Source: a bacterium (lineage in GTDB: Bacteria; UBA10199; 2-02-FULL-50-16; JAJFLM01). From it: DNA of 64,000 nt. A program made the translations under genes and the position numbers. Shown piece after piece: positions 8,856 through 29,757 of this stretch (positions are counted from its first letter, which is position 1; each line of letters begins with the position of its first letter). The stretch is taken from positions 1,120,001 through 1,184,000 of the forward strand of contig CBDCFN010000016.1 in NCBI GenBank assembly GCA_965216315.1, written 5' to 3'. The notes below the pieces were generated by a model. That model had not been told where the DNA came from. It searched no databases and was given only the letters and a program-made list of their open reading frames with translations.

Positions 8856-10406
8856 ATGGCGTATTTAGCCGCATTATTGAGTGGGCTGTTGCTGACGCTT
8901 AGCTTTACGACGGTTTTCAACGGCTTTCACCTGCCCGACTTATCGATCCTGGCGTGGATCGGACTTGTCCCCTTGATCGTCGTGTGTCGCCGCGCGCCGC
9001 TGCGACGTGTCGCTTTAGCTAGTTTTATCGCCGGGACTGTCTTTAACGCGCTCGTTTCTTATTGGATCTTTCACGCGATGAATCACTATGGCGGTCTGTC
9101 GCCGTTGGCGAGCCTGGCCGGCGTTCTGGCAATGGCGACGCTGCTCGGGGTGATGCAAGCGCTTATTTTCTGGTTGGTTTTCTGGCTAGAACGACAGGGG
9201 GCCGTCCCTTTGCTCTTCTTGTTGCCGTTTTTTTGGATGTTCAATGAGTGGCTGCGTAATTATGGCCCTTTTGGCGGCTATCCTTGGTCGCAGCTAGCCT
9301 ACAGTCAGGGAGGGCACTTAACGTTCGTTCAAATTGCCGATATCTTCGGAATCTACGGACTGAGTGCTTTGATCGTCTTTGTCAATTGTGTCATGGCGGA
9401 ACTCTGTCGATTTTTTACGAAGCAGCGGCGTTTTCCGGCAAGCGGAGTCGTGACCACCGTGCTCTTGTTGGTTGTGACGTACAGTTATGGCCACTGGCGA
9501 CTCGCATACGTTGAAGGCTGGGTGCAACAGGGGTCGTCAGTTCGGATTGGGATTGTCCAGCCGAATATTCCGCAGGAATTAAAATGGCAGCCGGTACAGG
9601 CTGCTAAATCAGTACAGACATTAAAAAAGTTGACTCAAGAAGCTGTGGATCAAGGGGCAGAGTTTGTTCTGTGGCCGGAATCGGCCTATCCGGATTTGTT
9701 GCCGAGCAATTTGGCTGAGCTTTACGATCTGGCGGAGAGTTCCGTGACTATTTTGACGGGAGCCGTCAGTGTCATCTCGGAAGAGGGTATTGATCGTCGC
9801 CGGCCGGCGATCCGGAACAGCGCTTTTCAGTTTTCCCCTGGAGGGATGACGACCGGGATTTATAGCAAGACACATCTCGTCCCCTTGGGGGAATATGTGC
9901 CTTTAAAGAACGTGCTCAGCTTTTTGGATAAGGTTGTCCCTTCAATTGGCGATTTCCATGCGGGGACGACCTTAAATCTGATTGAGTGGAATAAGTATAA
10001 ATACGGCGTGACAATTTGTTATGAAGATCTTTTCCCGGAAATCAGTCGAGAATTTGTCGCTAAGGGAGCCGATTTTTTGACGAATGTGACCAATGACGCC
10101 TGGTATGGAGACTCATCGGCGCAGTGGCAGCATTTAGAGTTCTCGCGCTTTCGTGTCATTGAAAACCGGCGTCCCATGTTGCGAAGTACGAATACGGGTG
10201 TGTCCGCCATCTATGCCGCGAGCGGGAGAACTATCGAGCAATTGCCCCCGTTTCAGGAGCAGCTGATGGTCAAGGATGTTGTCTTGGGCGGACCCAATTC
10301 GTTTTATACCCGCTTTGGTGACGTCTCGATCTTCGTTGTCATGGGATTCGTGCTTGCAATTATGGTCGCCATTAAGAATATTAGGCAGCGCGATGTCACT
10401 GGGTGA
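8856..10406 (+). CDS. lnt: Apolipoprotein N-acyltransferase
   Basis: WPESA, KTHLVPLGEYVP, ICYEDLFP, TNDAWYG, RSTNTGVS. Confidence 0.95.
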   Translation: MAYLAALLSGLLLTLSFTTVFNGFHLPDLSILAWIGLVPLIVVCRRAPLRRVALASFIAGTVFNALVSYWIFHAMNHYGGLSPLASLAGVLAMATLLGVMQALIFWLVFWLERQGAVPLLFLLPFFWMFNEWLRNYGPFGGYPWSQLAYSQGGHLTFVQIADIFGIYGLSALIVFVNCVMAELCRFFTKQRRFPASGVVTTVLLLVVTYSYGHWRLAYVEGWVQQGSSVRIGIVQPNIPQELKWQPVQAAKSVQTLKKLTQEAVDQGAEFVLWPESAYPDLLPSNLAELYDLAESSVTILTGAVSVISEEGIDRRRPAIRNSAFQFSPGGMTTGIYSKTHLVPLGEYVPLKNVLSFLDKVVPSIGDFHAGTTLNLIEWNKYKYGVTICYEDLFPEISREFVAKGADFLTNVTNDAWYGDSSAQWQHLEFSRFRVIENRRPMLRSTNTGVSAIYAASGRTIEQLPPFQEQLMVKDVVLGGPNSFYTRFGDVSIFVVMGFVLAIMVAIKNIRQRDVTG

Positions 10407-11491
10407 AATAAAAGATAGACTCGAGGTCCTTAAAAAGAAGTACGCGGACCTGAGGAGGTCGCTTTGACCTGGAAGACAAGCGCACTCGCCTTGACTCCTT
10501 AGAGGCGCAGGCCGGCGCCCCCGATTTTTGGAATGACAGCGCCAAAGCCGGGCAGGTTTCTCAACAGATCAATAACATCAAGAGTGAACTCGATTTTCAC
10601 GAGCGTTTGCAGGGTCATCTCGACGATGTCGAGACGAGCTGTGAGCTCTTAAAGGAATCAGCTGATTCCAACCTTGAGGCCGAGGCGGAGCAAACACTGG
10701 TCCAACTCAGTAACGAGCTCGATGAACTGGAGTTTCAGCGTATGCTATCCGGTCCGAACGACGAGGCCAATGCAATTCTGCAAGTCAATGCGGGGGCCGG
10801 TGGGACCGAGTCCTGTGATTGGGCGGAAATGCTCCTGCGCATGTATCGGCGGTACTGTGAACGTCAAGGTTTTGAGCACCAGCTCGTCGACTTTACCGCG
10901 GGAGACCAAGCGGGCTTTCGCTCGGCCACATTGACGGTCAATGGCCCGCATGCCTTTGGTTATTTGCGCGGGGAGAACGGCGTGCATCGCCTGGTCCGCA
11001 TTTCTCCCTTTGACGCGAGCAAACGCCGGCATACTTCCTTTGCATCGGTTTTTGTCTTGCCCGATATTGAAGACACGGTGGATATTGAGATCAATCCGGC
11101 GGATTTAAGGGTGGATACTTTCCGTTCCAGCGGGGCGGGAGGGCAACATGTCAATAAGACAGACTCCGCAATTCGCATCACGCACATCCCGACGAATATC
11201 GTCGTTGCCTGTCAAAACGAGCGCTCGCAGCATCGTAATCGCGACATGGCGATGAAGCTGTTGAAAGCTAAGCTTTACGAGCTTGAGCAGGAAAAACAAC
11301 GCAAGGAACGTGAGAAACTTGAAGACGCCAAGCAAGACATTGCCTGGGGTTCCCAGATCCGTTCCTATGTCCTGCATCCTTACCGCATGGTTAAAGATCA
11401 TCGCACGAACTACGAAATGGGTAACGCCGATGCCGTGCTGGACGGGGATATTTCTGAGTTTATCCGGCAAAATCTATTGCGTACCAGCTAA
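10393..11491 (+). CDS. prfB: Peptide chain release factor 2, with programmed +1 frameshift (about 365 aa)
   Basis: 24 codons from ATG 10393 to CTT-TGA, then +1 frame DLEDK... continuous with the SPF and GGQ motifs. Confidence 0.95.
10453..10468 (+). promoter_or_regulatory. RF2 programmed +1 ribosomal frameshift site
   Basis: AGGAGG-TCG-CTT-TGA-C: internal Shine-Dalgarno 3 nt before the canonical CTTTGAC slippery stop. Confidence 0.95.
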
Positions 11492-11542
11492 AGAGATGAT
11501 CTCGCCTGTTGACTCGCGTTAACAGATAATCCCCACTGTTCA

Positions 11543-11570
11543 CAACGCAAAACCCGCAAATTCTCGATAA
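11543..11570 (+). promoter_or_regulatory. Putative sigma28-like promoter CAAC-N17-TCGATAA (paralog 1)
   Basis: Same spacing as the copies at 17403 and 20291. Confidence 0.5.
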
Positions 11571-11646
11571 TTAGAGTGTTCACTAATTAAAGGCCCAAAT
11601 ACAGCCAGCTCATGGGTTGGGTAAGCAAATGGAGGCTCGTAAGGCA

Positions 11647-14364
11647 ATGTCACATCGCATTAAAGCAATATTTTCTTCAATTTCACTGCTACTGGTTATT
11701 TTTGCCTTTGCGGCCTGTCAGGACGTCGCTTCGGACTCGAAGTCCGACACAGCCAGTGATGAATCGGTTGGAATCAATATTGTCGGCGAGGATGGTATCG
11801 TTATCGGAGATGCCCCGCAGAGTAATGAAAATGTTGCCGATCCGGTCCAGGCCACCGCGGTCGATCCATGCGAATGGTCCAAGGACGCGGTCACGTTTGA
11901 GGCGACCGGACCTATTTATAAGAGTAGTACCTTTCAAGGGACGCAGGATACCTCGACGACGTTGAGTTGGACGGTTAATACGAATTGTACGCCTTCAAAA
12001 TTAATTATTGAGAGTTTTGATGGGAGTAGTTCAGAATACAGTGGGGCGAAGGCTCAAAGCTGGACCAAGCAGATTCCGGCTTTGAGCCAGAGTGCCACGT
12101 TTAAGCTCGTTCTGCTTTATAAGAAAAATAATCAGAGTACTGTTGTACTGGAGAAATCCATCGAGGTGCCCGTGATCGTGATGGAAGATACCTTTGATGT
12201 CAGCGTAACGGCTTGCAATAATGAAACTTCAACAGAATCAAAATGCGAGCTAAACACCAATCTGACCCCTCAAAACGACTATAAAGATCCGAGCGATTAT
12301 CTCGTTACTTTTTCGATGACGAATGATCCTGAACTGAAACTCTGCATCCGTTCGCCTCATGCGGGAATTGAAGCTCAAGCCAGCAACTTCGATTGGAAGG
12401 GCTTATTTATTAAGCAGGCCTATGCGGAATACAATGAGTTGGCCGTCGTCAAAAAAGAATTTGTTTCTAATAAAGGGTTTGCCAATAAGACGGTTATGCA
12501 ACTGCATCCTGGATATTTCTATAATGATCCGGCGCCGTCACTTGGTACGGTGGTCGGAAAGGTCGAATGCTTTGATGAAAATAATATGACCATGAGTGCG
12601 GACGGCACGCAGTTGATCGGACAATTTGAATTTAAGGCAACGGCGAGCACGGACATCGTCTACTATGCCGAGCGCGCTGGTGTGAAATTCATGGAAGCGA
12701 CGATTCCGCTGAAGGTCAAGATTATCCATCCTTCATCCGTTCTCGACGTGAAACGGGCGATCCCCGGCGTAGGTGCCAAAAACTACGACTTGGTCTTGGA
12801 AGAAGACAGCCCGGTTCTGGAGTTCAAAGTGAAATTAAGTGACGGGGAGCACTTTGCTTTAGTTACTGATGCGACGGATAAACTCTATTCAGAATCGACC
12901 TGGACCGCGAGCAGCGCGAATATGGAAAAAATCAACGGACAGAGCAGTGCGACGCCACCGCCGGCTGCAAAGGAAGCAATATGCAAGATCGATAGCGAAG
13001 GGTCATACGGGAATAGCGACTGTAAGGACAAAGGCTATGATCAAAATTTTATCGAGAAGGTCCAAAAAGTTTTTCCGAAGCGCAAGGTTCACGTCTTTAA
13101 ATTCAATCAGCACGATCTCGAAGAGACCTATTACTACGCGCGAGCGATCGCCTTTGATACGAAGTCAGCATTTATCGGATTCGGTTATGGTGATTATCTG
13201 AGGGTCGGTGTGGTTGAAAATGAAGGTCTGCCCGCCCCTCAAATTCGTTTTGCGGCCTCAATGGGTGTCGGAACGGATTATAAGAGCGTTGATTACTTCT
13301 GCACAGATGACTTTAGAAAGAAGATCTTTGAAGGGCCGACTCAAGCATCGATAGCCGGTAAATCGAGAGGGCTTAAGTCACTGACAGTAGAGCGGACCGG
13401 TTGCAGTGCCTCCGGTAATTCTTCCGTCAACGACGTCTATGGCGAAGAGGGTGTCTTCGATTTCCATTCGACCTGCCATTATAATAGTTTGAACCCGGGT
13501 TGGACCCTGACGGCGGTTGATTTCTTGGGTAAAACCCACACGAAGACCTGTAAATATGCGGCGAGTGGTTGGCCTATCTACGTTACGCTCGAAGGAGATA
13601 TTGGCAATAACATCGGTACGGATCACGTCGCGTTTAAGGTGGACAAGCACGAGCAGGGCGGCCCGAATCCCTATCTAGCGACTAAATTCGAAGCCGTCTC
13701 AGGCCATAGCTGTACCATTACGAATGGAGGGGAACAGGATTGGACCGATCCGAGAGATTATGCGGATCATATTGCGCCCGGCATCACGAATGTCGGTTTG
13801 AATTGCTGGAAAGCGCGTCTCAAGGTCAAAATGATTGACGGGAAATGGTATTACGTTCGCTTTAGCGCGGCGACGGCCAACGATAGTCTAAAGAGCAACG
13901 GTTATGTGTGGGAGGCGACGCAGCATCAACACTGGGCGACCTCCCTCAGTGGGAAAAGCGAAAGCCAAAAGGCGCGCTTTACCCTGACGTTTCCGCCGCC
14001 GCTTAAATTTGACCTGGTTGGCCATAAAGGGACACTCCCTTGGGGAGATAAGATCACCACGTGTGGCTACCTGTCTGACGACGATCTGGCCGGATACGAC
14101 CTGCATGCCTTTGCACGGGCCTTCTATTTCGACGGCAAGCACGTGACGAAGGTGAGTTGCGGCTGCACGGGAGGATGTACGGGCCAGGGAGGTAATTTGC
14201 TCAACGTCAGCGATGCCGAGTCGTTTGCGAATGAAGACGTTGGTTTCGTATGGGCGGGTGAAAAAGACGGGGGCGGTCGTTGGGATTTTACCTGTACGGC
14301 CACCGGTGTCGCCGGACAGGAAATAAAACGAGATTTTCATTGGTCTTGTCCCAATAAGGACTAG
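11647..14364 (+). CDS. Large Cys-rich multi-domain lipoprotein, paralog 1
   Basis: Signal peptide ending in lipobox FAAC; STTLSW Ig/PKD-like pattern; start may be 11629 or 11647. Confidence 0.8.
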   Translation: MSHRIKAIFSSISLLLVIFAFAACQDVASDSKSDTASDESVGINIVGEDGIVIGDAPQSNENVADPVQATAVDPCEWSKDAVTFEATGPIYKSSTFQGTQDTSTTLSWTVNTNCTPSKLIIESFDGSSSEYSGAKAQSWTKQIPALSQSATFKLVLLYKKNNQSTVVLEKSIEVPVIVMEDTFDVSVTACNNETSTESKCELNTNLTPQNDYKDPSDYLVTFSMTNDPELKLCIRSPHAGIEAQASNFDWKGLFIKQAYAEYNELAVVKKEFVSNKGFANKTVMQLHPGYFYNDPAPSLGTVVGKVECFDENNMTMSADGTQLIGQFEFKATASTDIVYYAERAGVKFMEATIPLKVKIIHPSSVLDVKRAIPGVGAKNYDLVLEEDSPVLEFKVKLSDGEHFALVTDATDKLYSESTWTASSANMEKINGQSSATPPPAAKEAICKIDSEGSYGNSDCKDKGYDQNFIEKVQKVFPKRKVHVFKFNQHDLEETYYYARAIAFDTKSAFIGFGYGDYLRVGVVENEGLPAPQIRFAASMGVGTDYKSVDYFCTDDFRKKIFEGPTQASIAGKSRGLKSLTVERTGCSASGNSSVNDVYGEEGVFDFHSTCHYNSLNPGWTLTAVDFLGKTHTKTCKYAASGWPIYVTLEGDIGNNIGTDHVAFKVDKHEQGGPNPYLATKFEAVSGHSCTITNGGEQDWTDPRDYADHIAPGITNVGLNCWKARLKVKMIDGKWYYVRFSAATANDSLKSNGYVWEATQHQHWATSLSGKSESQKARFTLTFPPPLKFDLVGHKGTLPWGDKITTCGYLSDDDLAGYDLHAFARAFYFDGKHVTKVSCGCTGGCTGQGGNLLNVSDAESFANEDVGFVWAGEKDGGGRWDFTCTATGVAGQEIKRDFHWSCPNKD

Positions 14365-14377
14365 AGATACGCAGCTG

Positions 14378-14425
14378 AAGACACTTGTCTTATGCTATGC
14401 AGACATTGTCTGAATCTGCTATGAT
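14378..14425 (+). promoter_or_regulatory. Two AGACA/TGTCT palindromes and an extended -10 (TGCTATGAT) upstream of paralog 2
   Basis: AAGACA-CT-TGTCTT 14378-14391; CAGACA-T-TGTCTG 14400-14412; TGcTATGAT 14417-14425. Confidence 0.4.
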
Positions 14426-14437
14426 AGTGGAGACCAG

Positions 14438-17371
14438 ATGGAAATGTCGCACCGCGTTAAAACATTTTTCTCTCTATCCTCTGCATTTATCCTGATTTTA
14501 GTGCTGGCTGCCTGCGAGATCGAGCGTGGGCTTACTTTAGACAAGGTCGAGCCCGCTCAGGCGATGCCGGGATCCGTTGTTCGGCTTATCGGCGGTGGTT
14601 TTAATGATCTGAATCAGTTGGAGGTGAAACTCGGCGAAACGCCGGTGGCCTTTGCCGAAGAGACCGCTCAACTGGTCAGTCAGGGCGAGGATGATTATAA
14701 GGGGAATGAGATTGCCGTGCGCGTGCCTGCGCAATTACCGCTAGGGTCCTACCTTTTTAGCGTGAAGAGCGGAGAGGAAGTCGCGACGCTCCCGTTTACG
14801 GTGGGCGCGGGCGGAGGTGCGATCGTTATCGATCCGGCAGCCGGGGAAGATGAGGCCCCCCAGCCAAGCGAGAGCGAAGACGAACCGGTGCAGACGGCCA
14901 CCATAGATCCCTGTGAGTGGCCCGAAGAAGCGGTCGATTTTCAAGCGACCGGACCGATTTACAAGAGTAGCACGTATCAGGGCGACCAGGACACGTCGAC
15001 GACGCTGAGTTGGACGGTTAATACGAATTGCACGCCCTCCAAGCTGATCATCAAGAGTTTTGACGGCAGCACCTCGGAATACAGCGGAGCCAAGGCCCAA
15101 AACTGGACCAAGCAGATCCCGGCGCTGAATCAGACGGCTACTTTTCAGCTAATCCTTATGTATAAAAAGGACAATGCGAATACCGTCGTGCTGGAGAAAT
15201 CGCTCGAGGTTCCGGTCGTTGTGATGGAGGAGGCCTTCGACGTAAAGGTGACGGCGTGTAATAAGGCAACCTCCACGGAAACGAAGTGCGATCATAATAC
15301 GAATTGGACGCCGCAGAATAATTACCAGGATCCCAGTGATTATGTGGTGACTTTTTCGATGACGAATGATCCAACGCTCAAGCTTTGCATACGCTCCCCG
15401 CATGCCGGCGTTGAATCCCAGGCGCGCCACTTTGATTGGAAAAATCTCTTCATCAAGGAGGCCTATGCTATTTCCAATGATCTGCAGGTTATTCACCAGA
15501 AAGGGTTTATTGAAAAGGGATTGAAGCACAAGGGCAATTTGTACGTATTTCCAGGTTTATCTTATAACGATCCGCCCCCATCGGTCGGAACGGTCGTCGG
15601 TAAGGTCGAGTGTTTTGATTCGAATAATATGCTCGTGAGTCCGGATGGGAAGCTGTTGACCGGACAGTTCGAGTTCAAGGCGACGGCAAGCACGGACATC
15701 GTCTACTATGCTGAGCGCGACAGTGTGAAATTTATGGAAGCGACGATTCCGCTGAAGGTCAAGATTATCCATCCTTCGTCCGTTCTCGACGTGAAGAGGG
15801 CCATTCCCGGTGTTGGCGCCAAAAACTACGACTTGGTTTTGGAAGAAGATAGTCCGGTATTAGAATTTAAAGTAAAATTAAGTGATGGTGAGCAATTTGC
15901 CCTGGTGACCGATGCGACGGACAAGCTTTATTCAGAGGCCACTTGGACCGCTAGCGACGCGAATAAAGAAAAAATCAATGGTCAGAGCAGTGCGGCGCCG
16001 CCGGGGGCAGCGAAGACAGCGACGTGTAAGATCATGAGTAGCGAAGAGACTTCCGGTGCGAAGAACTGCAAGAATCATGGCTATGATGAAGCCTTCATTG
16101 AGAAAGTCCGCAAGGTCTTGCCTAAGCGCACAGTTCATGTCTTCAAGTTCGCCGTCAACGAACAATCCGAAACCTATTATTACGCCAAGGCGATGGCCTT
16201 TGACACCAAGACGGTGGCGCTGGGTTTTGGTTATGGCGACTATTTGCAGGTCGGGACGGTGAGTGAGGCCGGTCTGCCGGCGCCGCAAGTTAAATTTAGC
16301 GGGATGCCGGAGTTCGGGGCCGCTTACCATGACGTCGATTCTTTTTGTACGACGGCATTCAAGAATGAACTCTTCAAGGGCAATCTGTCGGCCATGATGA
16401 CCGGTGAGACGCGGGGGGCGAAGTCGTTTAAAATTACGCGGACCGGTTGTAAGTCGTCCGGTATCGCATCCATCAATGATCGTTATGGTGAAGAGGGAGT
16501 CTTCGACTTCAGCTACGAATGTAATTATGACGGCATGAATCCGGGCTTCAACGTCGAGATGGTTGACTTCCTTGGTGTCAAACGGACGGAGACCTGCAAA
16601 TTTAATGTCAAGATGTGGCCGATGGAATTAAAATTGACCGGTCATTATGATGGCGACAGTACGTCTGATCGGCATGATTTCTCGATCGAAAAAATCGAAC
16701 AGCCGGGCCCGGATCCTATAAAAACAATCGAAGTGCGCCGGGTGCACAATGCCTGTAGTGGGGCGTTCCTCAATAATCCGGTCAATGTCGAGGATAGCCG
16801 GGATTTTTCGCGTACGTTCAGCGTAGAAGGGAAGGGTATCGACTGCTGGCAAATCGGGGTCAAGGTCGGAACCCTCGAAGGGACAAAGTGGGTAAAATGG
16901 AACACCAGCAGTAAGTCAGTCAAAAACATTGGTAAGAAGTGGACAGCGACAGGGTGGAGTTCTTCGCGTGGCAATAGTGAGACGATCTTTTTTCCGCCGA
17001 AATTAGAATTTAGTGGTGACTTTGGCAGTGCTCATTGCTGGTGGGAAACCTCCTGGGGGGACGAAGAACTCGTCAAGGGCGAGTTTAATTGGACCTATTC
17101 AGGAAGGCATATCAAAGATGTCTCCTGTAGTTGTAATAACGGTGCAAATAAGGTCTCCGGTACTGTCGGTAATATCAAGGCCGAGAAAGAGAATGGGCAG
17201 ACACTTGGCTATCGATGGACCGGTGGGACCGATAATGAAAAATTCTGGGATTGTAGCTGTACCGCGACAGGCTATGGGGATCAGGGTGATCGCTCAAGTT
17301 CATGGTGGGCCTGTTGTGACGGTGATGAACATGATGAGAGTGGACAAACTCCCTGCGGTAATAAGCGGTAA
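14438..17371 (+). CDS. Large Cys-rich lipoprotein, paralog 2, with extra N-terminal IPT/TIG-like domain
   Basis: Lipobox LAAC; LTLDKVEPAQAMPGSVVRLIGGGF...IAVRVP...LPFTV is an IPT/TIG pattern; 56-aa stretch identical to paralog 1. Confidence 0.8.
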   Translation: MEMSHRVKTFFSLSSAFILILVLAACEIERGLTLDKVEPAQAMPGSVVRLIGGGFNDLNQLEVKLGETPVAFAEETAQLVSQGEDDYKGNEIAVRVPAQLPLGSYLFSVKSGEEVATLPFTVGAGGGAIVIDPAAGEDEAPQPSESEDEPVQTATIDPCEWPEEAVDFQATGPIYKSSTYQGDQDTSTTLSWTVNTNCTPSKLIIKSFDGSTSEYSGAKAQNWTKQIPALNQTATFQLILMYKKDNANTVVLEKSLEVPVVVMEEAFDVKVTACNKATSTETKCDHNTNWTPQNNYQDPSDYVVTFSMTNDPTLKLCIRSPHAGVESQARHFDWKNLFIKEAYAISNDLQVIHQKGFIEKGLKHKGNLYVFPGLSYNDPPPSVGTVVGKVECFDSNNMLVSPDGKLLTGQFEFKATASTDIVYYAERDSVKFMEATIPLKVKIIHPSSVLDVKRAIPGVGAKNYDLVLEEDSPVLEFKVKLSDGEQFALVTDATDKLYSEATWTASDANKEKINGQSSAAPPGAAKTATCKIMSSEETSGAKNCKNHGYDEAFIEKVRKVLPKRTVHVFKFAVNEQSETYYYAKAMAFDTKTVALGFGYGDYLQVGTVSEAGLPAPQVKFSGMPEFGAAYHDVDSFCTTAFKNELFKGNLSAMMTGETRGAKSFKITRTGCKSSGIASINDRYGEEGVFDFSYECNYDGMNPGFNVEMVDFLGVKRTETCKFNVKMWPMELKLTGHYDGDSTSDRHDFSIEKIEQPGPDPIKTIEVRRVHNACSGAFLNNPVNVEDSRDFSRTFSVEGKGIDCWQIGVKVGTLEGTKWVKWNTSSKSVKNIGKKWTATGWSSSRGNSETIFFPPKLEFSGDFGSAHCWWETSWGDEELVKGEFNWTYSGRHIKDVSCSCNNGANKVSGTVGNIKAEKENGQTLGYRWTGGTDNEKFWDCSCTATGYGDQGDRSSSWWACCDGDEHDESGQTPCGNKR

Positions 17372-17402
17372 GGTTTTCAGCAACGAATCTTTCTAACGTA
17401 CG

Positions 17403-17430
17403 CAACTCTACACATTCAACAAACCGATAA
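17403..17430 (+). promoter_or_regulatory. Putative sigma28-like promoter CAAC-N17-CCGATAA (paralog 3)
   Basis: GCAACTC...ACCGATAA; same flanks and spacing as 20290-20318. Confidence 0.55.
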
Positions 17431-17538
17431 TCCCTGTGAGGTCGGGTGCGGACTTCCTGCCGGGTTAGCAGACTCCGAACGAGAGGCAACTAGAGTGTTC
17501 ACGTGGATTGTGATGGTCCACCTTGTACCGGAGTGTGT

Positions 17539-20268
17539 ATGGCAAAGCTTACTTGTCAGGGCCTCGCCCTGTTGTGTGTTTCCCTTACCTTGATTCTCAC
17601 TTCCTGCCTTAAACCCGCGAATGACAATGATAATAATAAGCCCATTATAAGCGAATCAGCGGACGGTGATCTTGGGGTCGAGGTGAGCGGTCTTCCCGAG
17701 TCGGGTGCGATTGATGTCGATCCTGTGGTTGGAGATGAAGGTGAGGCGAGTAGCCCTCAGGCGACGGTTGTTGAACCTCCCTGCGAATGGCCCGCCGAAG
17801 AGATTTCCTTTGCCGGAAACGCCCCGGTTTACAAGAGTAATGCGGTCGATGAAACCGCTCAGGATCTCTCCACGCAGCTGAGTTGGAACATCACCACCGG
17901 ATGCGCTCCGGATAAAGTTATTATTACAACCCCTCATGGGACGTCCGAGTATGCGGGGGCGCGTGCGCAGAGCTGGAGTAAGGATATCCCCAAACTTGAG
18001 GAGACGACGAGCTATACGCTGGTTATCATTCACAAGAACGAAGTCGTGCATGAAGAATCAGTTGAGATTCCCTTGGTTGTTATGGAGGATAACTTTCAAG
18101 TTTCAGTTACGGCTGTCAACAAGGTAACCGGCAGTCAACATATGAGTTGGACGCCCCAGCAAAATTACCAAGATCCACGCACTTATAAAGTCAGCTATTC
18201 TTTTAGCGCCGAGCTCGATAAGGTCTGTATCCGTTCGCCTCACGGGACGGCGCCGTCGCGCTTTCAGCAGAATAGAAATCTTCGGCCGCAACAACGTCAA
18301 TTGGATCGTCATGATTTCGAGCTCCAGGAAGCGATTATTCAGAATCGCCTGAGCCGCTGGATAGGCGATGCTCTGATTGGCGTTGCTCATGCCGCTCCGC
18401 TCCAAGTTGATCCTCTCTATGCGGCGGTCGTTTGGGTCGATGGAGCGCCCAAGGCACCGACAGTATCGGGATATGAGGAGTGTTTCGGCAAGGATGACTC
18501 CGTGCTCGATGCCCAGGGAAAGAATTACGAGGGTGAGTTCGAATTTGAATTGAATGGCAGTACGGCGATTGAATCCTACGGCATGCTCAATGGCGTCAAA
18601 ATATTTGAAAAGTCAACGCCGCTCAACGTGACGATTGTTAAGCCGTCTTCCGACTTTGCAGCGAAACGCGCGATCCCCGGTGTCGGTGCCAAACACTATG
18701 ATCTCGTCGAGAATGGACTGAGCTCGGTCATCGAATTTAAAGTCGAATTTAGTGATAGCGTGCAGGCCGCGCTCGTAACCGACGTGGCAACGAAGCTGTA
18801 TTCCGAGTCGACTTGGACGGCGAGTGACACGAATATGCAAATCATCAATGGGACCCAGGCCGGTACGTTGCCGGCGGCGAAGTCTGCGGTGTGCGATATC
18901 GATCCCGATGCGGCGTCAACCTCGTCCACAATCAAACCATGCACGGACGCCGGCTTTACAGCCAACTTTATCGATAAAATAAAGACGACTTATCCTAATC
19001 GTCACATGAATGTTTTCAAATTCAATGTTCATGATCTCGCCGAAAGTTACTATTATGCCAAGGCCTCCCAGTTTAAGACCAAGTCTGCCCTGGTCGGTGT
19101 TGGCTATGAAGATTATTTGCAGCAGAGCGAAACGGAAGCGACAGAAATCCCTGAGCCGGGCATTCGCTTTACTCCCACGGCCGAGTACAGCAGTGATTAT
19201 GTTGGAGTCAATAATTTCTGTTCCAATGGTTTTAAGAATACCCTTTTTGCGGGAGCGCAATCCGCAATATTGGCCGGTGAGACGCGCGGCGTTAAATCGA
19301 TGGAAATCCGGCAGACCGGTTGCGATTCCAATCAGGGTAGCACGGATGTTCATCCCTACTATGGTGAACCCGGAGTGATCAATTTTAATTCTAAATGTTT
19401 CTATGACGGGATGAATCCAGGTTACACCGTGACGACAGAAGATCTCCTTGGGAATGAAACGAATACGACCTGCAAATTTAACGTGACGATGTGGGACATC
19501 AAACTGCAGCTGACCAGCAAAACCGATAACCTGCTAGAAGATCGCTATGGCTTTAAGCTTGAAAAAATCGAGCAACCGGGCCCGGATCCGATCAAAGAGC
19601 TTAAAGTTGTCAAAGTTGACAGCCATTGTGGTGGGGCCTTTCTGAATACGGCTGTCAATGTCGAGGATGATCGCGATTACGAGCGTACTTTTGATGTAAC
19701 GAACCAAGGGGTTGATTGTTGGAAGATTGCCGTCCAGGCAAAGACTTACGACGGTTGGAAGTATGTCACTTGGACGACGCATAGCCAGCAGGTCAAAAAT
19801 ACCGGCTACCAATGGCATTCAAAAAGCATTAGCAAAAATACCCGTGGCAATAATGAAACGGCTTTTTTCCCGCCGCGTATGCATATCGATAAGTGGCAAC
19901 GGACATCGAGTCAGTGTTGGAGCACATTTACGTATATTGGTGCTTGCAGCATAGCGTGCACTATCTGGAATGAGAAGATTGATAAGTACGAAGCCGATTA
20001 CAAGCTGAGTGGACGCCATATCGACCGTTTGGAAGTGACCTGCAATCGCGGCTCACTAAGCGGCGTGAGTGTCAGCGGAAGCGACCGAGAGCGCTTTGTG
20101 GATAAGGCTCTCAGCTATAGTTCCAATGCTAACTCGGATGTGCGTACGAAGATTAAATATGATTGTGAAGTGACGGCCACGGGGGTCGGTGATCAGCCTA
20201 AATTAACCCGGTCGTTTGCCCGGTGGGCCAAAGCTGAAGGGAATTCGTGTACGATGGGGAATCAATAA
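17539..20268 (+). CDS. Large Cys-rich lipoprotein, paralog 3
   Basis: ATG 17539 after GGAG; lipobox LTSC; shares CIRSPH, KRAIPGVGAK and KLYSESTWTAS with paralogs 1 and 2. Confidence 0.8.
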   Translation: MAKLTCQGLALLCVSLTLILTSCLKPANDNDNNKPIISESADGDLGVEVSGLPESGAIDVDPVVGDEGEASSPQATVVEPPCEWPAEEISFAGNAPVYKSNAVDETAQDLSTQLSWNITTGCAPDKVIITTPHGTSEYAGARAQSWSKDIPKLEETTSYTLVIIHKNEVVHEESVEIPLVVMEDNFQVSVTAVNKVTGSQHMSWTPQQNYQDPRTYKVSYSFSAELDKVCIRSPHGTAPSRFQQNRNLRPQQRQLDRHDFELQEAIIQNRLSRWIGDALIGVAHAAPLQVDPLYAAVVWVDGAPKAPTVSGYEECFGKDDSVLDAQGKNYEGEFEFELNGSTAIESYGMLNGVKIFEKSTPLNVTIVKPSSDFAAKRAIPGVGAKHYDLVENGLSSVIEFKVEFSDSVQAALVTDVATKLYSESTWTASDTNMQIINGTQAGTLPAAKSAVCDIDPDAASTSSTIKPCTDAGFTANFIDKIKTTYPNRHMNVFKFNVHDLAESYYYAKASQFKTKSALVGVGYEDYLQQSETEATEIPEPGIRFTPTAEYSSDYVGVNNFCSNGFKNTLFAGAQSAILAGETRGVKSMEIRQTGCDSNQGSTDVHPYYGEPGVINFNSKCFYDGMNPGYTVTTEDLLGNETNTTCKFNVTMWDIKLQLTSKTDNLLEDRYGFKLEKIEQPGPDPIKELKVVKVDSHCGGAFLNTAVNVEDDRDYERTFDVTNQGVDCWKIAVQAKTYDGWKYVTWTTHSQQVKNTGYQWHSKSISKNTRGNNETAFFPPRMHIDKWQRTSSQCWSTFTYIGACSIACTIWNEKIDKYEADYKLSGRHIDRLEVTCNRGSLSGVSVSGSDRERFVDKALSYSSNANSDVRTKIKYDCEVTATGVGDQPKLTRSFARWAKAEGNSCTMGNQ

Positions 20269-20290
20269 GCGACCGCGCTACGGTCATTAG

Positions 20291-20318
20291 CAACTCCAGC
20301 GGACCCATTGACCGATAA
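20291..20318 (+). promoter_or_regulatory. Putative sigma28-like promoter CAAC-N17-CCGATAA (paralog 4)
   Basis: GCAACTCC...ACCGATAA. Confidence 0.55.
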
Positions 20319-20439
20319 GGGAATGGGTGCGAAATTTTCTACTCGTAAGTTGCATTTAACACCCGATTTGCGTCCTTGATTTCATCATAGAATATCAAAG
20401 GAGGCTATGTAATAATATTCAGGATACTCGGGAGGTTGT

Positions 20440-23190
20440 GTGACGTCGCTACGCTTTTTTATCTTATTATCCCTCATTATGGGCCTTACGGCCTGCTCCG
20501 GTGCGAAAAAATCGGAGGTAAACGATCCGGGGGTGACCGTCAGTCCGGGCGTCGATATTGTCACTCCTGATTCCACGGAAAGTGAGGAGGCGGAAGAAGA
20601 ACCTGCCATCCAACCCGATGCGCCTGCCGCGATTGACCCCGATGAATTTAAGAATGCGATGTTGGTTGCGGACCCCGCCACGGTCTATGTCGGGCAAGGA
20701 GAGGAAGTCAAAAAGACCGGTGGCTCGACGACGCTCAAATGGGGCATTGAGGGTGAATTTGATAAGATCGCCTTCGTGCGTAAGGCGGATCAATCGATTA
20801 TTTTCGAGACGACCCAGGGTTCTTCCGAGAAAGAAACCGGCCTGCTTTATGAAACGACGACGGCCGTCATGAAGGTTAAAAAACAAGGCCAGTGGTTGGA
20901 TGGTCCTGAAGTCGTGATTGAGGTGGAGAAGGTCTCTGACCTCTATCCATTGAACGTTGTTGTGACCCCCTATCCGGGCCGCCTGCCGCCGGGACAGGAT
21001 ACCCGCAAAATGGAAGCGGCTTTTATGGTCGCCAATAATTTTTACGATAAGATCTGTATCAAGGTCGGTTCCCTGAGCAAGCATCAGCCGCCGAATGGCG
21101 GCAAGTTGACGATGTCTTTGATCGGCTTTCAAGTCGTGGTACCGACGGAGCCGTTGTTAGAAGATATCACCAAGTGTTTTGACAAGCCGGCGGACCCGGA
21201 CCAGCCTTTCGTCGGTTCGGTCGAGTTTACGCCCGAGCCGCTGGACGCGGACAAGACGCAAAAAATGGTGCCGGTGCATATCTGGGGGTTTAAGGGCGAA
21301 AAGAAATACTATCAGAATGTCTCGTACGGAGTACTCAGACGGGTGCCGCCCTCGGTCGATCTGCGCGTTGCGCGCACGGTGCCGGGAGGGGACGCGGAGC
21401 TCAAAGATCTTTTTCTGACGGGCTTTACCAACGTGCTTGAAATGCACGTCGAGGCCCAATATCTGCAGGATCTCTACATTGTGACTAATGCGGCGGATAA
21501 ACTGTACAACGAGGCCTATATTCAGGCGGACCCGGTCCATCCGCCCAAGCGAAAAAACGTCAATCCTATTCTCAACGAACACTGTCAGGTCTCTTTGCAA
21601 AAACCGGGCGGCGAGCTTGGTAAAGTCACTAACGCCGGCAATCAGTGTCCCGCTGTCGTCAAGACCGTCTTGGGTCAGCGTATCAAGGGCTATGAAGGTC
21701 TATTCTCCGTGTTTAAAATCAGTAAAGGCGGGGCTGGCGGCGTGATGATGAGCCAAGGGGGTGTCAGCGGCTTGAAGGCGAATACGCAGCCGCAGCAGCA
21801 ACAAGCGGATACGCCGAGCCCGACGCAACTGGCCCTCAACGCGCAAGGGAGTCTGGCTCCGGTCAGGCTCTACGTACCGGCGACGCGTGATTTTAATACC
21901 TTTGTCATGGTCTTAGGCATTGCGGCCGACGATAAGAAGGTCGCTGAGGCGGTGCACGAGGCCCTGCCGACGCCGGACTGGGAAGAGTTGCTCTCGATCC
22001 CCGACGCCGAATGGATGGAGAAGTTTCAGAATCAGGCTCCTTTCGTCGAGTTTAACGTGCTCAACGTCGGCCGAGTCGATAAGGCCAAGGCCGAACACCT
22101 CAACCCCGACAGCTGTTCGGGTGAGCTGGAAGTGAAAACGCCGGCTAACATGAAGAATGCGGTCCGCTTCACTTTGCGTTGTACGGTTACCGGTGACAAG
22201 GAACTTGGCTGGAAGGTGACCGTTCCGACCATATTGGGTGGCGACAAGAAGCAGACGAAGATTATTCGCTATTCGATGCGTGATTGGCGTTTCAAGATCA
22301 AGCTGAAGGAAATCGTCAAACAGGACGGTGCTCCCAAGGGCTTTGATCAGATCACTTGGGAGGTCAAGGCGGATCCGCCGCCTGGAGCGATTGGCGGCGC
22401 GGGCCCGGGCCCGAATCCCTTTGAGAAGATCAGAATGGTTCCCTATCGAATCAGGGAGTACGATACCAATGACCGCTTTTGTACGGGCTGGGATGACGAG
22501 GGTTACAAATTTACCGAGGCCGGTGAGTCGCGACTCTTTACGTTTAAAAATTATGGCTTGAATTGCCATAGCTTTAAGTTGCAAGGGCGCCGCATTGGCA
22601 AGGCGGAGTGGGAGGACTTTCCCGCCAAAGAAGTGTCGAAGGAGTTGCACAAATATGTCACGGAAGGGCCGGGCTCCCTTCACAATTCGACGATAGAGGC
22701 GCGCCCGGCACCGAGCCTTACCTGGAAGGAAGAATCGGTTAATTGTGAGTGGGAAGAAGTTTGCGACGAAGATGATTGTGATAAGTATATGCATGCCTGC
22801 TGGGGGTGTTTCGGGGGGCCCTTGGCATGCGCGATCGCGTGTGGGATAGGTGTTAAAAAGCGCAACGATTGCCGGGACAACATTGAATGTCATCAGGAGC
22901 TTATCGGTGAGCGCAAGGTCAAGATTGAGGCGGAACACATCCAGACGATGAATGTTCTCGCTTTGGAGTCTCCCGACGATCACGATGATATCCAGCATGG
23001 CGGCAGTGACTACTGTGATCTGCTCAATCGAGAGCTCGACGACTATTTGGAGAAGATGGAGTATGTCAAAGACGAATTCTCTCACCCCGCGTTCGAGGAA
23101 GAGTTTGCCTGTAAGCTCTATTTGCGGGGGGCCGGCGGCCATCCCTCGGTTGAGACGGTTGTCTCGTCCGGCAAATGCACTCCAAACTAG
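20440..23190 (+). CDS. Large Cys-rich lipoprotein, paralog 4 (most divergent)
   Basis: GTG after GGAGG; lipobox LTAC; ADPATV..G.STTLKW Ig/PKD-like pattern; homologous motifs DKICIK/KCFD, ARTVPG, ADKLYNE, GPGPNP, GLNC. Confidence 0.78.
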   Translation: MTSLRFFILLSLIMGLTACSGAKKSEVNDPGVTVSPGVDIVTPDSTESEEAEEEPAIQPDAPAAIDPDEFKNAMLVADPATVYVGQGEEVKKTGGSTTLKWGIEGEFDKIAFVRKADQSIIFETTQGSSEKETGLLYETTTAVMKVKKQGQWLDGPEVVIEVEKVSDLYPLNVVVTPYPGRLPPGQDTRKMEAAFMVANNFYDKICIKVGSLSKHQPPNGGKLTMSLIGFQVVVPTEPLLEDITKCFDKPADPDQPFVGSVEFTPEPLDADKTQKMVPVHIWGFKGEKKYYQNVSYGVLRRVPPSVDLRVARTVPGGDAELKDLFLTGFTNVLEMHVEAQYLQDLYIVTNAADKLYNEAYIQADPVHPPKRKNVNPILNEHCQVSLQKPGGELGKVTNAGNQCPAVVKTVLGQRIKGYEGLFSVFKISKGGAGGVMMSQGGVSGLKANTQPQQQQADTPSPTQLALNAQGSLAPVRLYVPATRDFNTFVMVLGIAADDKKVAEAVHEALPTPDWEELLSIPDAEWMEKFQNQAPFVEFNVLNVGRVDKAKAEHLNPDSCSGELEVKTPANMKNAVRFTLRCTVTGDKELGWKVTVPTILGGDKKQTKIIRYSMRDWRFKIKLKEIVKQDGAPKGFDQITWEVKADPPPGAIGGAGPGPNPFEKIRMVPYRIREYDTNDRFCTGWDDEGYKFTEAGESRLFTFKNYGLNCHSFKLQGRRIGKAEWEDFPAKEVSKELHKYVTEGPGSLHNSTIEARPAPSLTWKEESVNCEWEEVCDEDDCDKYMHACWGCFGGPLACAIACGIGVKKRNDCRDNIECHQELIGERKVKIEAEHIQTMNVLALESPDDHDDIQHGGSDYCDLLNRELDDYLEKMEYVKDEFSHPAFEEEFACKLYLRGAGGHPSVETVVSSGKCTPN

Positions 23191-23233: not shown

Positions 23234-23284
23234 TTTGAAATCGGGGCCCGAATAGCGTGCTTGGCTATTTTTAGGAGGGCCCCT

Positions 23285-25120: not shown

Positions 25121-26617
25121 ATGAAGACATCACCCTTGATTGAAGAGCGGCTTAAGAAACTCGAGGAACTCAAGGCCGCGGATATACCGGCCTATCCAAA
25201 CGATATCCAGGTGTCGGACCGCATCGCCGAGGTGTCGGAGCGTTTTGGGGGGCAGTCCCGTGAGGAGTTGGAGAAAGTAACCGCGACGGTTCAACTGGCG
25301 GGGCGCATGATGTCGGTGCGTCTCTTTGGCAAGGCCGGTTTTGCTCACCTCAAGGACAGCAGCGGTAAGATCCAAATTTTCATTGAAAAAAAGGGACTTA
25401 GCGAGGAAGAGTTCAAGCTTTTCAAGAAGGCCGATATCGGGGATTTTTTGTGGGTCGAAGGGGCCCCGATGCGCACCAAAACGGGGGAGCTCTCCATCCA
25501 TGCCCAAAAATTGCGCTTGGTGACCAAGTCACTCCACCCTTTGCCGGAGAAATGGCACGGCCTGCAGGACAAGGAGATTCGCTATCGCAAGCGCTATGTG
25601 GATCTCATCGTCAATGATGAGGTGCAGCAGGTTTTTCGGAGGCGCTCGGCTATTGTCAGTCAAATTCGCCAATTCTTCATCGAGCGGGAATTTTTAGAGG
25701 TGGAGACGCCGATGATGCATTCTTTGGCCGGCGGCGCGGCGGCACGCCCCTTTGAAACCCACCATAATGCACTTGATTTGGAGCTGTACTTGCGTATCGC
25801 CCCTGAACTTTATCTTAAGCGCCTCATTGTGGGTGGCTTTGATCGCGTCTTTGAATTGAATCGTAATTTTCGTAACGAAGGGATTTCGACCCAACATAAT
25901 CCTGAATTTACGATGCTGGAATTTTATCAGGCTTATGCGCGCCACGAAGATCTCATGGCATTAACCGAAGAGTTGCTTAGTGAGCTGGCACAGGAGATCT
26001 GTGGGGGAACCGATGTCATGTATGCCGGGGAGAAACTTTCGTTTAAGGCGCCTTTCGCGCGGCATAATTTTGAGGAGTCCTTAGTCGAGATTGGCGGGTT
26101 GCCGCCTGAAGTCATCAAGGATGCCGCTGTAGCTGAGAAGATTGCCGAAGAGAATGGCATTAATCCCAAGTCCGGTGGAACGCTGGCTTCATTGCACATG
26201 GCCTTGCTCGAAAAGTTTGTGGAGCCGAAACTGATTCAGCCGACCTACATTACCAAGTTTCCGGCGGATGTTTCACCGCTGGCGCGGCGTGATGATAGTG
26301 ACCCCCAGTATACGGAGCGTTTTGAATTGTATATAGCGGGTCGGGAAATCGCGAACGGCTTTTCAGAGCTTAATGATCCGATTGATCAAGAAGAGCGCTT
26401 TAAAAACCAGCTTAAGGCCAAGCAGCGCGGTGATGACGAAGCCATGCCTTATGATGCTGATTTTGTGGAAGCCTTGATGTATGGCATGCCGCCGACGGCT
26501 GGTGAAGGAATCGGTATTGATCGGTTGGTGATGTTATTGACGGATCAGCCCTCCATTAGGGATGTAATCTGTTTTCCGCTGCTTCGACCTGAGGTCTCTG
26601 ATACTAAGGGTGCCTAA
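25121..26617 (+). CDS. lysS: Lysine--tRNA ligase (class II)
   Basis: LPEKWHGL, YLRIAPELYLKRL, FRNEG, HNPEFTMLEFY, YGMPPTAGEGIGIDRL. Confidence 0.98.
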   Translation: MKTSPLIEERLKKLEELKAADIPAYPNDIQVSDRIAEVSERFGGQSREELEKVTATVQLAGRMMSVRLFGKAGFAHLKDSSGKIQIFIEKKGLSEEEFKLFKKADIGDFLWVEGAPMRTKTGELSIHAQKLRLVTKSLHPLPEKWHGLQDKEIRYRKRYVDLIVNDEVQQVFRRRSAIVSQIRQFFIEREFLEVETPMMHSLAGGAAARPFETHHNALDLELYLRIAPELYLKRLIVGGFDRVFELNRNFRNEGISTQHNPEFTMLEFYQAYARHEDLMALTEELLSELAQEICGGTDVMYAGEKLSFKAPFARHNFEESLVEIGGLPPEVIKDAAVAEKIAEENGINPKSGGTLASLHMALLEKFVEPKLIQPTYITKFPADVSPLARRDDSDPQYTERFELYIAGREIANGFSELNDPIDQEERFKNQLKAKQRGDDEAMPYDADFVEALMYGMPPTAGEGIGIDRLVMLLTDQPSIRDVICFPLLRPEVSDTKGA

Positions 26618-26621
26618 GCAC

Positions 26622-27866: not shown

Positions 27867-27871
27867 CCATT

Positions 27872-29059: not shown

Positions 29060-29085
29060 GTGACTGATTTAGAAGGAATTTTTGG

Positions 29086-29757
29086 ATGGTAGCGTTATTA
29101 GAAGCACGTTTATTAGGCAAGTCCTATGCAGAGGGCGGAACTGAGTCCCCCGTGCTCTCGGATGTGAATTTGAGTGTGGACAGAGGCGAAATTTTGAGTA
29201 TTACAGGGGCCTCCGGGGCCGGGAAAAGTACGCTTTTACATCTTTTGGGCACGATCGAGGTTCCCACGAGCGGCCAAGTTTTCTTTGAGGGCGATGACGT
29301 ACTCAGTTATTCAGAGCGAGATTTAGCCGAATTTCGGAATAAGAAGCTTGGCTTTATCTTTCAATTCCATCATTTATTGGCGGAATTTAATGCCTTAGAA
29401 AATGTATCGATGCCGCTGATGTTGAGGGGGATGCCGGGGAGCGCTATTCGAGAGCAAGCGGTCAGCGCGCTTAAAGATGTCGGGATGGAGCATAAGCTCA
29501 GCTCTTTGCCGGGAGAGTTGTCAGGTGGTGAACAGCAGAGAGTTGCTGTTGCCAGGGCTATTGTGACGGCGCCGATTCTGTTGCTGGCCGATGAGCCAAC
29601 CGGTAATTTAGATCGTCAGACAGGGACCCAATTAATGGAGCTACTCTTTGACTTGAATCAGGCAAGAGATTTGACGCTGATATATGTGACACATAATGAT
29701 GAGTTAGCGGCTCGTGCAGGTCGCACACTTCACATGCAGGATGGAAAGTTGCAATGA
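29086..29757 (+). CDS. lolD: Lipoprotein-releasing ABC ATPase LolD
   Basis: GASGAGKS, GFIFQFHHLL, LSGGEQQRVAVARA, ADEPTGNLD. Confidence 0.92.
   Translation: MVALLEARLLGKSYAEGGTESPVLSDVNLSVDRGEILSITGASGAGKSTLLHLLGTIEVPTSGQVFFEGDDVLSYSERDLAEFRNKKLGFIFQFHHLLAEFNALENVSMPLMLRGMPGSAIREQAVSALKDVGMEHKLSSLPGELSGGEQQRVAVARAIVTAPILLLADEPTGNLDRQTGTQLMELLFDLNQARDLTLIYVTHNDELAARAGRTLHMQDGKLQ

Follow-up and report, generated by a model that had tools for sequence, protein, structure and literature searches.

A tandem array of four genes for predicted multi-domain lipoprotein paralogs, nearly orphan in sequence, between prfB and lysS of an uncultured bacterium

Introduction

The lipoproteins LigA and LigB of Leptospira, as PMC7821625 describes them, are exported to the cell surface by the Lol system and bind host proteins; each consists of many immunoglobulin (Ig)-like domains that are not repeats, the proximal domains being shared between the two proteins and the distal ones differing. 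In logic, though not in family, the Lig proteins appear to be the closest analogue of the four consecutive genes considered here, which we call A, B, C and D (paralogs 1 to 4) in gene order. The genes occupy positions 11647-23190, on the + strand, of a 64,000-nt stretch of DNA (the window; positions 1,120,001 to 1,184,000 of contig CBDCFN010000016.1, assembly GCA_965216315.1) from a bacterium of the lineage UBA10199. The likeness lies in the lipoprotein signal peptides, in the long chains of fold-related, non-repeated Ig-like domains, and in the combination of similar proximal with different distal parts. The differences are several. Lig domains belong to Pfam Big_2, whereas the array copies match no Big model; the copies have six domains against 12-13 in Lig, and there are four of them in tandem; the proteins of A and B are 72-80% identical over domains 1-3, with saturated synonymous sites; and the host of the array is no pathogen but an uncultured organism, free-living or of lifestyle not known.

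We are highly confident that the four copies are exported lipoproteins built of multiple beta-sandwich domains. The fuller reading, in which they are also located in the outer membrane or at the cell surface and have a binding role there, is the one that we prefer, and we hold it tentatively. The copies form a well-defined, nearly orphan and lineage-restricted family that is covered by no database model. The family is new, but it is of a known sort, that of multi-Ig-like lipoprotein paralogs.

Results and Discussion

Four collinear genes with lipoprotein signals

An earlier, sequence-only reading of this DNA had proposed four consecutive paralogs on one strand, and the open reading frames (ORFs) together with a full-length collinear alignment bear this out. 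The four same-strand ORFs encode collinear paralogs of 905-977 aa. Gene A (11647..14364, +; 905 aa) has an alternative TTG start at 11617 and a lipobox, FAAC, that ends at residue 24. Gene B (14438..17371, +; 977 aa), which is a mosaic, has the lipobox LAAC ending at residue 26; gene C (17539..20268, +; 909 aa), with an alternative GTG start at 17503, has LTSC ending at residue 23; and gene D (20440..23190, +; 916 aa), the most divergent copy, has LTAC ending at residue 19. The intergenic gaps A-B, B-C and C-D are 73, 167 and 171 bp, and a GGAG-type ribosome-binding site lies 5-11 nt before each of the four proposed starts. Over the whole-length alignment the identity to A is 57% for B, 38% for C and 22% for D. 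Every motif that had been listed as shared recurs in the alignment: STTLSW/STQLSW/STTLKW, CI(R/K)...CF, RAIPG/RTVPG, KLYSE/KLYNE, GPNP/GPDP, G(L/I/V)(N/D)C and a terminal CTATG/VTATG, at which site D has LYLRG instead. The paralogy is far beyond chance, because the nonsynonymous divergence (dN) in the front half is well under the saturated synonymous divergence (dS), and because homologs occur in other genomes.

Lipoproteins were called by a rule-based reading: a basic n-region, a hydrophobic h-region and a lipobox of the form [LVI][ASTVI][GAS]C near residues 15-30. All four copies have such a signal, the Phe at -3 in A's FAAC being a less common residue. Lys, Arg or His precedes the hydrophobic stretch in each signal peptide. 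The residue at +2 to the lipid Cys is Gln in A, Glu in B, Leu in C and Ser in D, and Asp in none, as had been claimed along with the lipoboxes. As judged from their sequences, then, the four copies are lipoprotein precursors. In A, the signal peptide, the lipobox (Cys24) and an acidic, disordered tether (residues 25-73) together span 11647..11865 (+), with a predicted local distance difference test score (pLDDT) of <50 over residues 1-72; this tether has 11 Asp+Glu and 1 Lys+Arg. The tethers of the four copies run to 32-57 residues, with 9-13 Asp+Glu, 0-2 Lys+Arg and 2-6 Pro. The description of the linker as acidic and Pro-rich is thus sound in its first part and only mildly apt in its second. 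Similarly, the label Cys-rich holds in relative terms: with 21-23 Cys per copy (2.3%), the copies lie at the 91st percentile of the 826 genome ORFs of at least 400 aa, whose median is 0.89%.

The codon adaptation of the four genes falls at the 75th-85th percentile, that of bamA being at the 74th, which suggests ordinary to good expression of native genes; the GC content of the array is unremarkable. The public sequencing runs listed as containing the locus include no RNA run. Scans of the region for promoters and terminators gave no signal above shuffled expectation. A shared motif, AC(A/C)GATAA(T)CC, is found about 110-130 nt 5' of the starts of A, C and D (window about 11530-11545, 17420-17440 and 20310-20325) and is missing before B, which begins 73 bp past A. 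It may mark three promoters or a common operator.

A predicted chain of six beta-sandwiches

AlphaFold2 models were made of full-length A, with an eight-sequence alignment, and of A residues 536-905. The full-length model has a mean pLDDT of 64.7, its structured blocks lying mostly at about 75-88, and the C-terminal model has a pLDDT of 72.1 and a predicted template-modelling score (pTM) of 0.67. Because both rest on very shallow alignments, we read them at the domain level only. At that level it is a safe statement that the mature part of A is modelled as six consecutive Ig/FN3-like beta-sandwiches, and the chain of about six such domains that had been proposed from the letters agrees with the models and with the chains of Ig, FN3 and MG domains that Foldseek retrieves.

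Domain 1 (residues 74-182; 11866..12192, +) is an Ig/FN3-like beta-sandwich that carries STTLSW. Domain 2 (residues 183-362; 12193..12732, +) is a beta-sandwich with a conserved Cys233/Cys308 pair and a low-confidence, disordered insertion at residues 239-303. Domain 3 (residues 363-535; 12733..13251, +), the most conserved segment across all pairs of copies, is mixed, with beta strands and three short helices, and contains RAIPG, KLYSE and Cys446/Cys459. The remaining three are again beta-sandwiches: domain 4 (residues 536-639; 13252..13563, +; residues 11-104 of the C-terminal model) has the conserved Cys552, 586, 610 and 635; domain 5 (residues 640-784; 13564..13998, +; residues 105-249 of that model) has GPNP, GLNCW and Cys688-689/Cys720; and the terminal domain 6 (residues 785-905; 13999..14361, +), the most divergent, ends in CTATG...C.

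With the whole A model, Foldseek gave 232 matches at E <= 0.001, and those listed all consist of Ig, FN3 or MG domains in a chain, among them a Chlamydomonas mastigoneme (7.5e-10), contactin-2, alpha-2-macroglobulins, complement C5 and titin; three-domain FN3 matches cover residues 76-529. The whole-model TM-scores, 0.10-0.19, are low because the domain angles differ. For the C-terminal model the listed matches include an RTX adhesin repeat of Aeromonas (6xi1, 6.7e-5), nectin-1, intimin D00-D0 (6tqd, 9e-4; prob 0.99) and Yersinia InvD (5ldy, 2.7e-3). These scores lie in the range of a common structural arrangement, and no enzyme or lectin fold is recognisable among the matches of either model. 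The phrase 'Ig/PKD-like repeats' in the sequence-only reading is true only as a statement about a generic fold, because no PKD, TIG or Big-type Pfam profile (Big_1/Big_2 and relatives) matches any of the four copies; nor are the six domains sequence repeats of one another, the best cross-domain hidden Markov model (HMM) comparison among 24 segments reaching E 0.0067.

How close are these structural relatives? The intimins, invasins and RTX adhesins are extended beta-sandwich stalks displaying a distal binding part, and it is the last three domains of A that resemble them. They differ in being anchored by a beta-barrel or secreted by the type 1 route, whereas the array copies would be held by an N-terminal lipid; in consisting of near-identical repeats, whereas the array copies have six distinct domains; and in structure, since the TM-scores are only 0.16-0.32 and no lectin-like tip domain is recognised in the copies. 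The bacterial alpha-2-macroglobulins (A2Ms; E. coli ECAM/YfhM and Salmonella A2M) are, like the copies, lipoproteins of successive beta-sandwich domains, in the A2Ms of the MG type, and stand among the structural matches.

One might ask whether the copies are protease-trapping, A2M-like lipoproteins or, alternatively, polymorphic lipoprotein toxins with variable C-terminal effectors. Polymorphic toxins have a conserved N-terminal and a divergent C-terminal part, and the copies share that outline. We nevertheless regard this pair of explanations as very improbable. The thioester motif CxEQ is found in 0/9 family members and the A2M Pfam family is likewise unmatched; no thioester or bait-region domain is recognised; and at ~900 aa, against ~1,540 for the Salmonella protein, the copies are about half as long. 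Bacterial A2M genes pair with a penicillin-binding-protein gene, and no such gene neighbours the array. As for toxins, the divergent C-terminal parts remain collinear, homologous beta-sandwiches, not swapped unrelated domains, and the intergenic gaps of 73-171 bp are too small for immunity genes. Searches for toxin or enzyme families and motifs were negative too: in the nine members searched for CxEQ, HExxH and GxSxG there is neither an HExxH nor a conserved GxSxG, the lone match to the latter pattern being GKSRG in A.

A second possibility raised by the structural matches is a lipid-anchored surface coat, that is, an S-layer-like lattice or another abundant surface layer, whose subunits the paralogs would provide either as alternatives or jointly. 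In Haloferax volcanii the S-layer glycoprotein is a lipid-anchored chain of six Ig-like domains, and it is among the Foldseek matches (7ptp, E 5.8e-7); the fairly high codon adaptation of the array and its location beside constitutively needed genes would also suit an abundant protein. The 7ptp match is only the 37th, however, with TM 0.15-0.17, amid hundreds of generic multi-Ig matches, no S-layer or SLH family in Pfam or NCBIfam is matched, and the codon adaptation of the array genes (0.70-0.71) is below that of the ribosomal set (0.729). The Haloferax protein shares with the array copies only the generic build that the intimin/invasin and RTX stalks and the A2Ms also share, and we think a coat decidedly unlikely.

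Three local features depart from the common architecture. An extra N-terminal domain (about residues 27-126; 14516..14815, +) is found in B only; it is an insertion in the four-copy alignment and lies right after the lipid Cys, ahead of the tether. A homolog in another genome, P0005 of genome G001, has it too. Scanned alone, the N-domains of B and P0005 match 0 Pfam families at E <= 10; a counterpart in genome G010 scores 19.2 bits against TIG (PF01833), below the cut-off of 20.9, and by eye the domain looks IPT/TIG-like. In D, residues 769-817 (window 22744-22890) have 10 Cys in 49 residues, a knot-like insertion in the last domain that no other copy has. D also has a Gln-rich (poly-Gln) insertion, QPQQQQ, between domains 3 and 4.

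A nearly orphan family

That no named family could be recognised, as first noted, is upheld by each of the collections searched. In Pfam no match of the four copies reaches the cut-off, the sub-threshold rows at E <= 1 being MMM1 (E 0.012, 0.17) and DUF6680 (E 0.13); NCBIfam, PHROGs and PADLOC give 0 families; and the family profile against all Protein Data Bank (PDB) sequences has a best E of only 0.25. Neither a full-length match to an enzyme or S-layer family nor a globular, non-modular fold, either of which the sequence-only reading had named as evidence against itself, was found.

The same reading had suggested a profile search for copy number and taxonomic range. A HMMER profile built from the four paralogs was run against 1,835,955,588 representative proteins and gave 7 matches at E <= 0.001, three of which are A, C and D. 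The four beyond the window are P0005 (5.6e-51), P0006 (3.9e-32), P0007 (1.8e-11) and P0008 (8.6e-4); their 90% clusters contain 1, 1, 2 and 1 sequences, and the sole name given is 'hypothetical protein'. P0009 is a full-length version of P0007. The phylum comprises here one class, with 93 species genomes, so that profile searches at the phylum and class levels cover the same set; of these genomes an eight-sequence profile matches 4/93, the host's own (G000) included. The match in G001, of the same family as the host, is at 1e-300. That in G030, of another family, is at 3.1e-8, to a 1,126-aa lipoprotein at a locus unrelated to the array's. The match in G019, at 5.6e-4, is discounted, because the alignment covers no more than an Ig-type strand, the generic 'GGSTTLSW', in a different lipoprotein. 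In the host genome, six segment HMMs run against 10,170 ORFs (>=80 aa) match only the four array genes.

Other routes added no member. A word-indexed homolog search with A, which scored 8,000 candidates, gave only A and B; pattern scans of genome and metagenome contigs with the four-paralog alignment, and of metagenome contigs with P0008, found no relative; and in the ESM Atlas A scored at best 0.86, under the usable level, with no usable match for D.

The members themselves are easily recognised. A-D, P0005, P0006, P0008, P0009 and the G030 protein align across a collinear six-segment body, so that the homologs retain the architecture of the array copies, and they share a signature, consisting of a body end G(K/R)xI..V.C.C ... 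C.(C/V)TA.G ... C plus conserved Cys columns. The G030 member (L113:10676-14056) differs in its N-terminal part: where the other members have a short acidic tether, it has ~200 Ala-rich residues (with runs of A, E, N and R) that link the lipobox to the beta-sandwich body, a stretch that is probably helical.

Disulfides, export and location

After the lipid Cys, A has 20 Cys, B 22, C 18 and D 20; the other complete lipobox-bearing members have 18 (P0005), 12 (P0008) and 20 (G030), and P0006, which has no lipobox, has 14. The number is even in all of the members counted, an argument that is not a statistical test because the members are relatives. The conserved Cys columns pair within single domains (233/308; 446/459; 552, 586, 610 and 635; ~688/720; ~796/840; 881-883/901), and we infer one or two disulfides per domain. 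Such intradomain disulfides fit proteins that fold outside the cytoplasm. The genome, which is 98% complete, encodes a VKOR-type oxidase; DsbB was looked for in it and not found. Of the lipoprotein machinery, the window itself holds Lnt (8856-10406) and two LolC/E-like genes with a LolD-like gene (26610-29757), and the genome encodes LspA (PF01252, 128 bits) and likewise LolA, BamA and Skp.

How might the copies work? In our preferred reading, the precursors would be lipidated by Lgt, LspA and Lnt and ferried by LolCDE-LolA to the outer membrane, and their Cys would be oxidised to disulfides by the VKOR-type system. The proteins would then project from the membrane on the tether as a jointed stalk, in which domains 1-3 would be the common, conserved part, and domains 4-6, diverged and exchanged between copies, would give each paralog its own binding specificity. 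On this view the array would be a small repertoire, fixed at four binders, whose ligands differ and are carried by other cells, by polymers or by particles. An adhesin or recognition role is a reasonable but tentative proposal.

Several points weigh against this reading. Sorting to the outer membrane leans on the +2 rule of E. coli, which need not hold in this phylum. The genes around the array are housekeeping genes, and none for a ligand, partner, transporter or flippase is linked to it. For the last three domains, the pTM of 0.67 is a hint of compact rather than extended packing. The faster divergence of the distal domains could mean relaxed constraint instead of diversified binding, and the identical sequence in two samples gives no sign of ongoing diversification.

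A rival explanation that we consider possible, at a fairly low probability, is that the copies face the periplasm and serve as structural or scaffolding lipoproteins that space, tether or organise the inner membrane, the cell wall and the outer membrane relative to each other. In diderm bacteria the majority of Lol-sorted lipoproteins are directed towards the periplasm, and LpoA and LpoB of E. coli are elongated lipoproteins that span it. A tether plus a chain of domains would do likewise: at ~4 nm per Ig domain, the length of six sandwiches and a tether is roughly comparable to the width of the periplasm. The array also sits within a backbone of envelope-biogenesis genes, with lnt upstream and lolC/E/D, bamA and skp downstream, in the housekeeping slot between prfB and lysS; its codon adaptation is like that of bamA; and its sequence is stable between samples. 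On the other side, some relatives have the usual conserved gene string but lack the array, and in two of them (G006 and G009) prfB and lysS are adjacent; because of this the position of the array is weak evidence of function. The distribution, 4/93 genomes with the G019 case doubtful, is narrow for a housekeeping role, and four divergent copies with very fast sequence divergence fit such a role poorly.

If the copies are surface binders, as we prefer to think, they would be the most accessible handle on how a wholly uncultured phylum touches particles, partners or prey, and natural targets by which to label or capture the cells. The array also adds a sequence family that has no database model, and it reveals a variable slot within a conserved string of housekeeping genes. 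Lineage-specific multi-Ig lipoproteins of unassigned function are common in candidate phyla, and for this reason the value of the array is moderate until location and ligand are known; its significance would rise if surface exposure and distinct ligands were shown, or if the slot after prfB proved to hold one fast-evolving recognition superfamily.

An old mosaic

What evolutionary steps account for four such copies? The sequence-only reading had described a conserved membrane-proximal half and a divergent distal part, and both the identities by segment and dN agree with it. Between A and B the identity is 80%, 72% and 76% for domains 1, 2 and 3, and 46%, 30% and 33% for domains 4, 5 and 6. For B and C the corresponding values are 50%, 40% and 50%, followed by 48%, 54% and 32%. 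Each domain of D is 12-30% identical to its counterparts in the other copies. When A and B are compared in windows of 60 codons, dN is 0.015-0.19 across residues 60-450 and 0.75-1.16 past residue 630, while dS is saturated almost everywhere, the exception being a value of 0.6 at residues 300-390; because of this saturation, dN/dS cannot be read as evidence for or against positive selection.

Trees made by segment place the halves of B differently. For domains 1-3, A and B group with a support of 99/100; for domains 4-5, B and C group with 90/96, and for domain 5 alone with 91/92, several long branches leaving other groupings unreliable. By these trees B is an old mosaic, whose front half goes with A and whose domains 4-5 go with C. 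The picture that emerges is one of old duplications with at least one old distal exchange between copies, the proximal half having been strongly conserved and the distal half having undergone loose or diversifying evolution.

Recent gene conversion or a cassette mechanism was considered and rejected: the region has no inverted repeats, and its best direct DNA repeat is 300 nt at 83% identity. In public contigs of two samples, from one study, the sequence is identical over the stretches covered, though such contigs are unable to reveal rare variants. The notion of a fast-switching repertoire therefore fails; the duplications are old, with dS saturated, the best repeat is only 83% over 300 nt, and two samples have the same sequence, so that the array is not a switching system. 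In one run, X2, short contigs of low depth have clustered differences at window 11794-11853, 14551-14596 and 18488-18570, and a second strain of the organism, present in the same sample, is the probable source of these variant contigs.

The interval between prfB and lysS

The gene string of the window reads phoH, a 7TM-HD protein gene, ybeY, lnt, prfB, A, B, C, D, a 516-aa ORF and lysS, and past lysS lie the two LolC/E-like genes, the LolD-like ATPase gene, bamA and skp. The slot that the array occupies is bordered on the left by prfB (release factor 2; 10393..11491, +) and on the right by lysS (lysyl-tRNA synthetase; 25121..26617, +), both outside the family. For Salmonella, PMC7530605 gives the gene order 'recJ prfB lysS'.

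We surveyed the slot in 12 relatives and then extended the survey to 68 more genomes, taking at most 5 kb after prfB (loci L089-L091 and L114-L181; 80 genomes of the phylum), using a crude rule-based script for lipoproteins; in the larger set seven loci are <1 kb and several more are too short to judge. Two of the 12 relatives have no gene between prfB and lysS (the gap is 47 bp in G006 and 282 bp in G009), and in G007 the two genes are separated by 3.5 kb of unrelated, opposite-strand genes. In G001, prfB is followed by P0005 up to the contig end, and lysS begins another contig; in G003, it is followed by a 903-aa lipoprotein and then by a second one that the contig end cuts; and in G010, 17 kb lie between prfB and lysS, including three same-strand lipoproteins of 562, 715 and 728 aa. 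In the 68 further genomes, lysS is the first ORF within 600 nt of prfB in 8 loci and comes later in the fetched stretch in 7, and the first ORF after prfB is a lipoprotein, by the rule, in 8 loci. Altogether lysS directly follows prfB in about 10 of the 80 genomes. The post-prfB proteins, grouped by BLAST at E <= 1e-4, include the present family, seven Cys-rich lipoproteins, seven Cys-poor secreted proteins (~550 aa), four lipoproteins of 645-726 aa, and others. What follows prfB thus varies across the phylum, exported proteins being frequent occupants of the slot.

Are the other Cys-rich lipoproteins of the slot relatives of the array? The group of seven comes from one genome family only (three in G010, two in G073, and one each in G075 and G076), with 12-52 Cys after the anchor. 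Together with those of G003, these proteins resemble the array copies in lying in the same slot, on the same strand right after prfB and, where the contig allows, before lysS; in having a lipobox, an N-domain that aligns with B's, a linker and a long body; and in their Cys number, even in 9/9 (12-52). They differ in that neither full-length profiles nor BLAST nor segment HMMs bring out a significant similarity. For the G003 and G010 lipoproteins, full-length hhalign comparison with the family gives Prob 3.9% and 5.3%, BLASTP is not significant, and the best E by segment HMMs is 0.38. By parts, the N-domains of B and P0005 align with those of the G003 and G010 lipoproteins at hhalign Prob 78% (P 1.8e-5, 93 columns), and the last 150 residues align in register at Prob 49% (P 1.8e-4, 78 columns), both P values being optimistic because the regions were picked by eye after the sequences had been viewed. 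Common descent of the N-domain of the array (B, P0005) with those of G003 and G010 is probable on this alignment, and for this domain only.

One could go further and suppose that the prfB-lysS gap is a phylum-wide 'identity slot' for surface proteins that recognise partner, host or prey cells or kin. At least three families would hold one to four fast-evolving, disulfide-rich lipoproteins there; these would have an N-terminal module in common, and possibly the last domain too, and their middles would have diverged beyond recognition while recombining between copies. We offer this as a doubtful conjecture. Were it true, selection favouring new specificities would account for the fact that billions of proteins contain only about ten recognisable relatives.

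The 516-aa ORF between D and lysS (23261-24811) has an HEIAH (HExxH) motif, one C-terminal TPR and, by eye, no signal peptide. Relatives of it occur in 9/93 phylum genomes at E <= 1e-5, G000 included (G027, G029, G017, G024 and, more weakly, four more), and none was found in the other family-carrying genomes, G001 and G030. A link with the array was accordingly rejected, since the relatives lie in genomes without the family and G001 and G030 have none, and we treat the ORF as an unrelated passenger.

The prfB gene itself contains the programmed +1 frameshift site in its classical form, AGGAGG followed by CTT TGA C at 10462-10468 (window 10393-10620). Its short first frame begins with the ATG at 10393 and overlaps the end of lnt, whose stop is at 10404-10406. 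The heptamer CTTTGAC occurs 16 times on both strands of the window, against 8.75 expected, a number that 0/100 shuffles reached, and of the 16 copies only that at 10462 is the prfB frameshift site.

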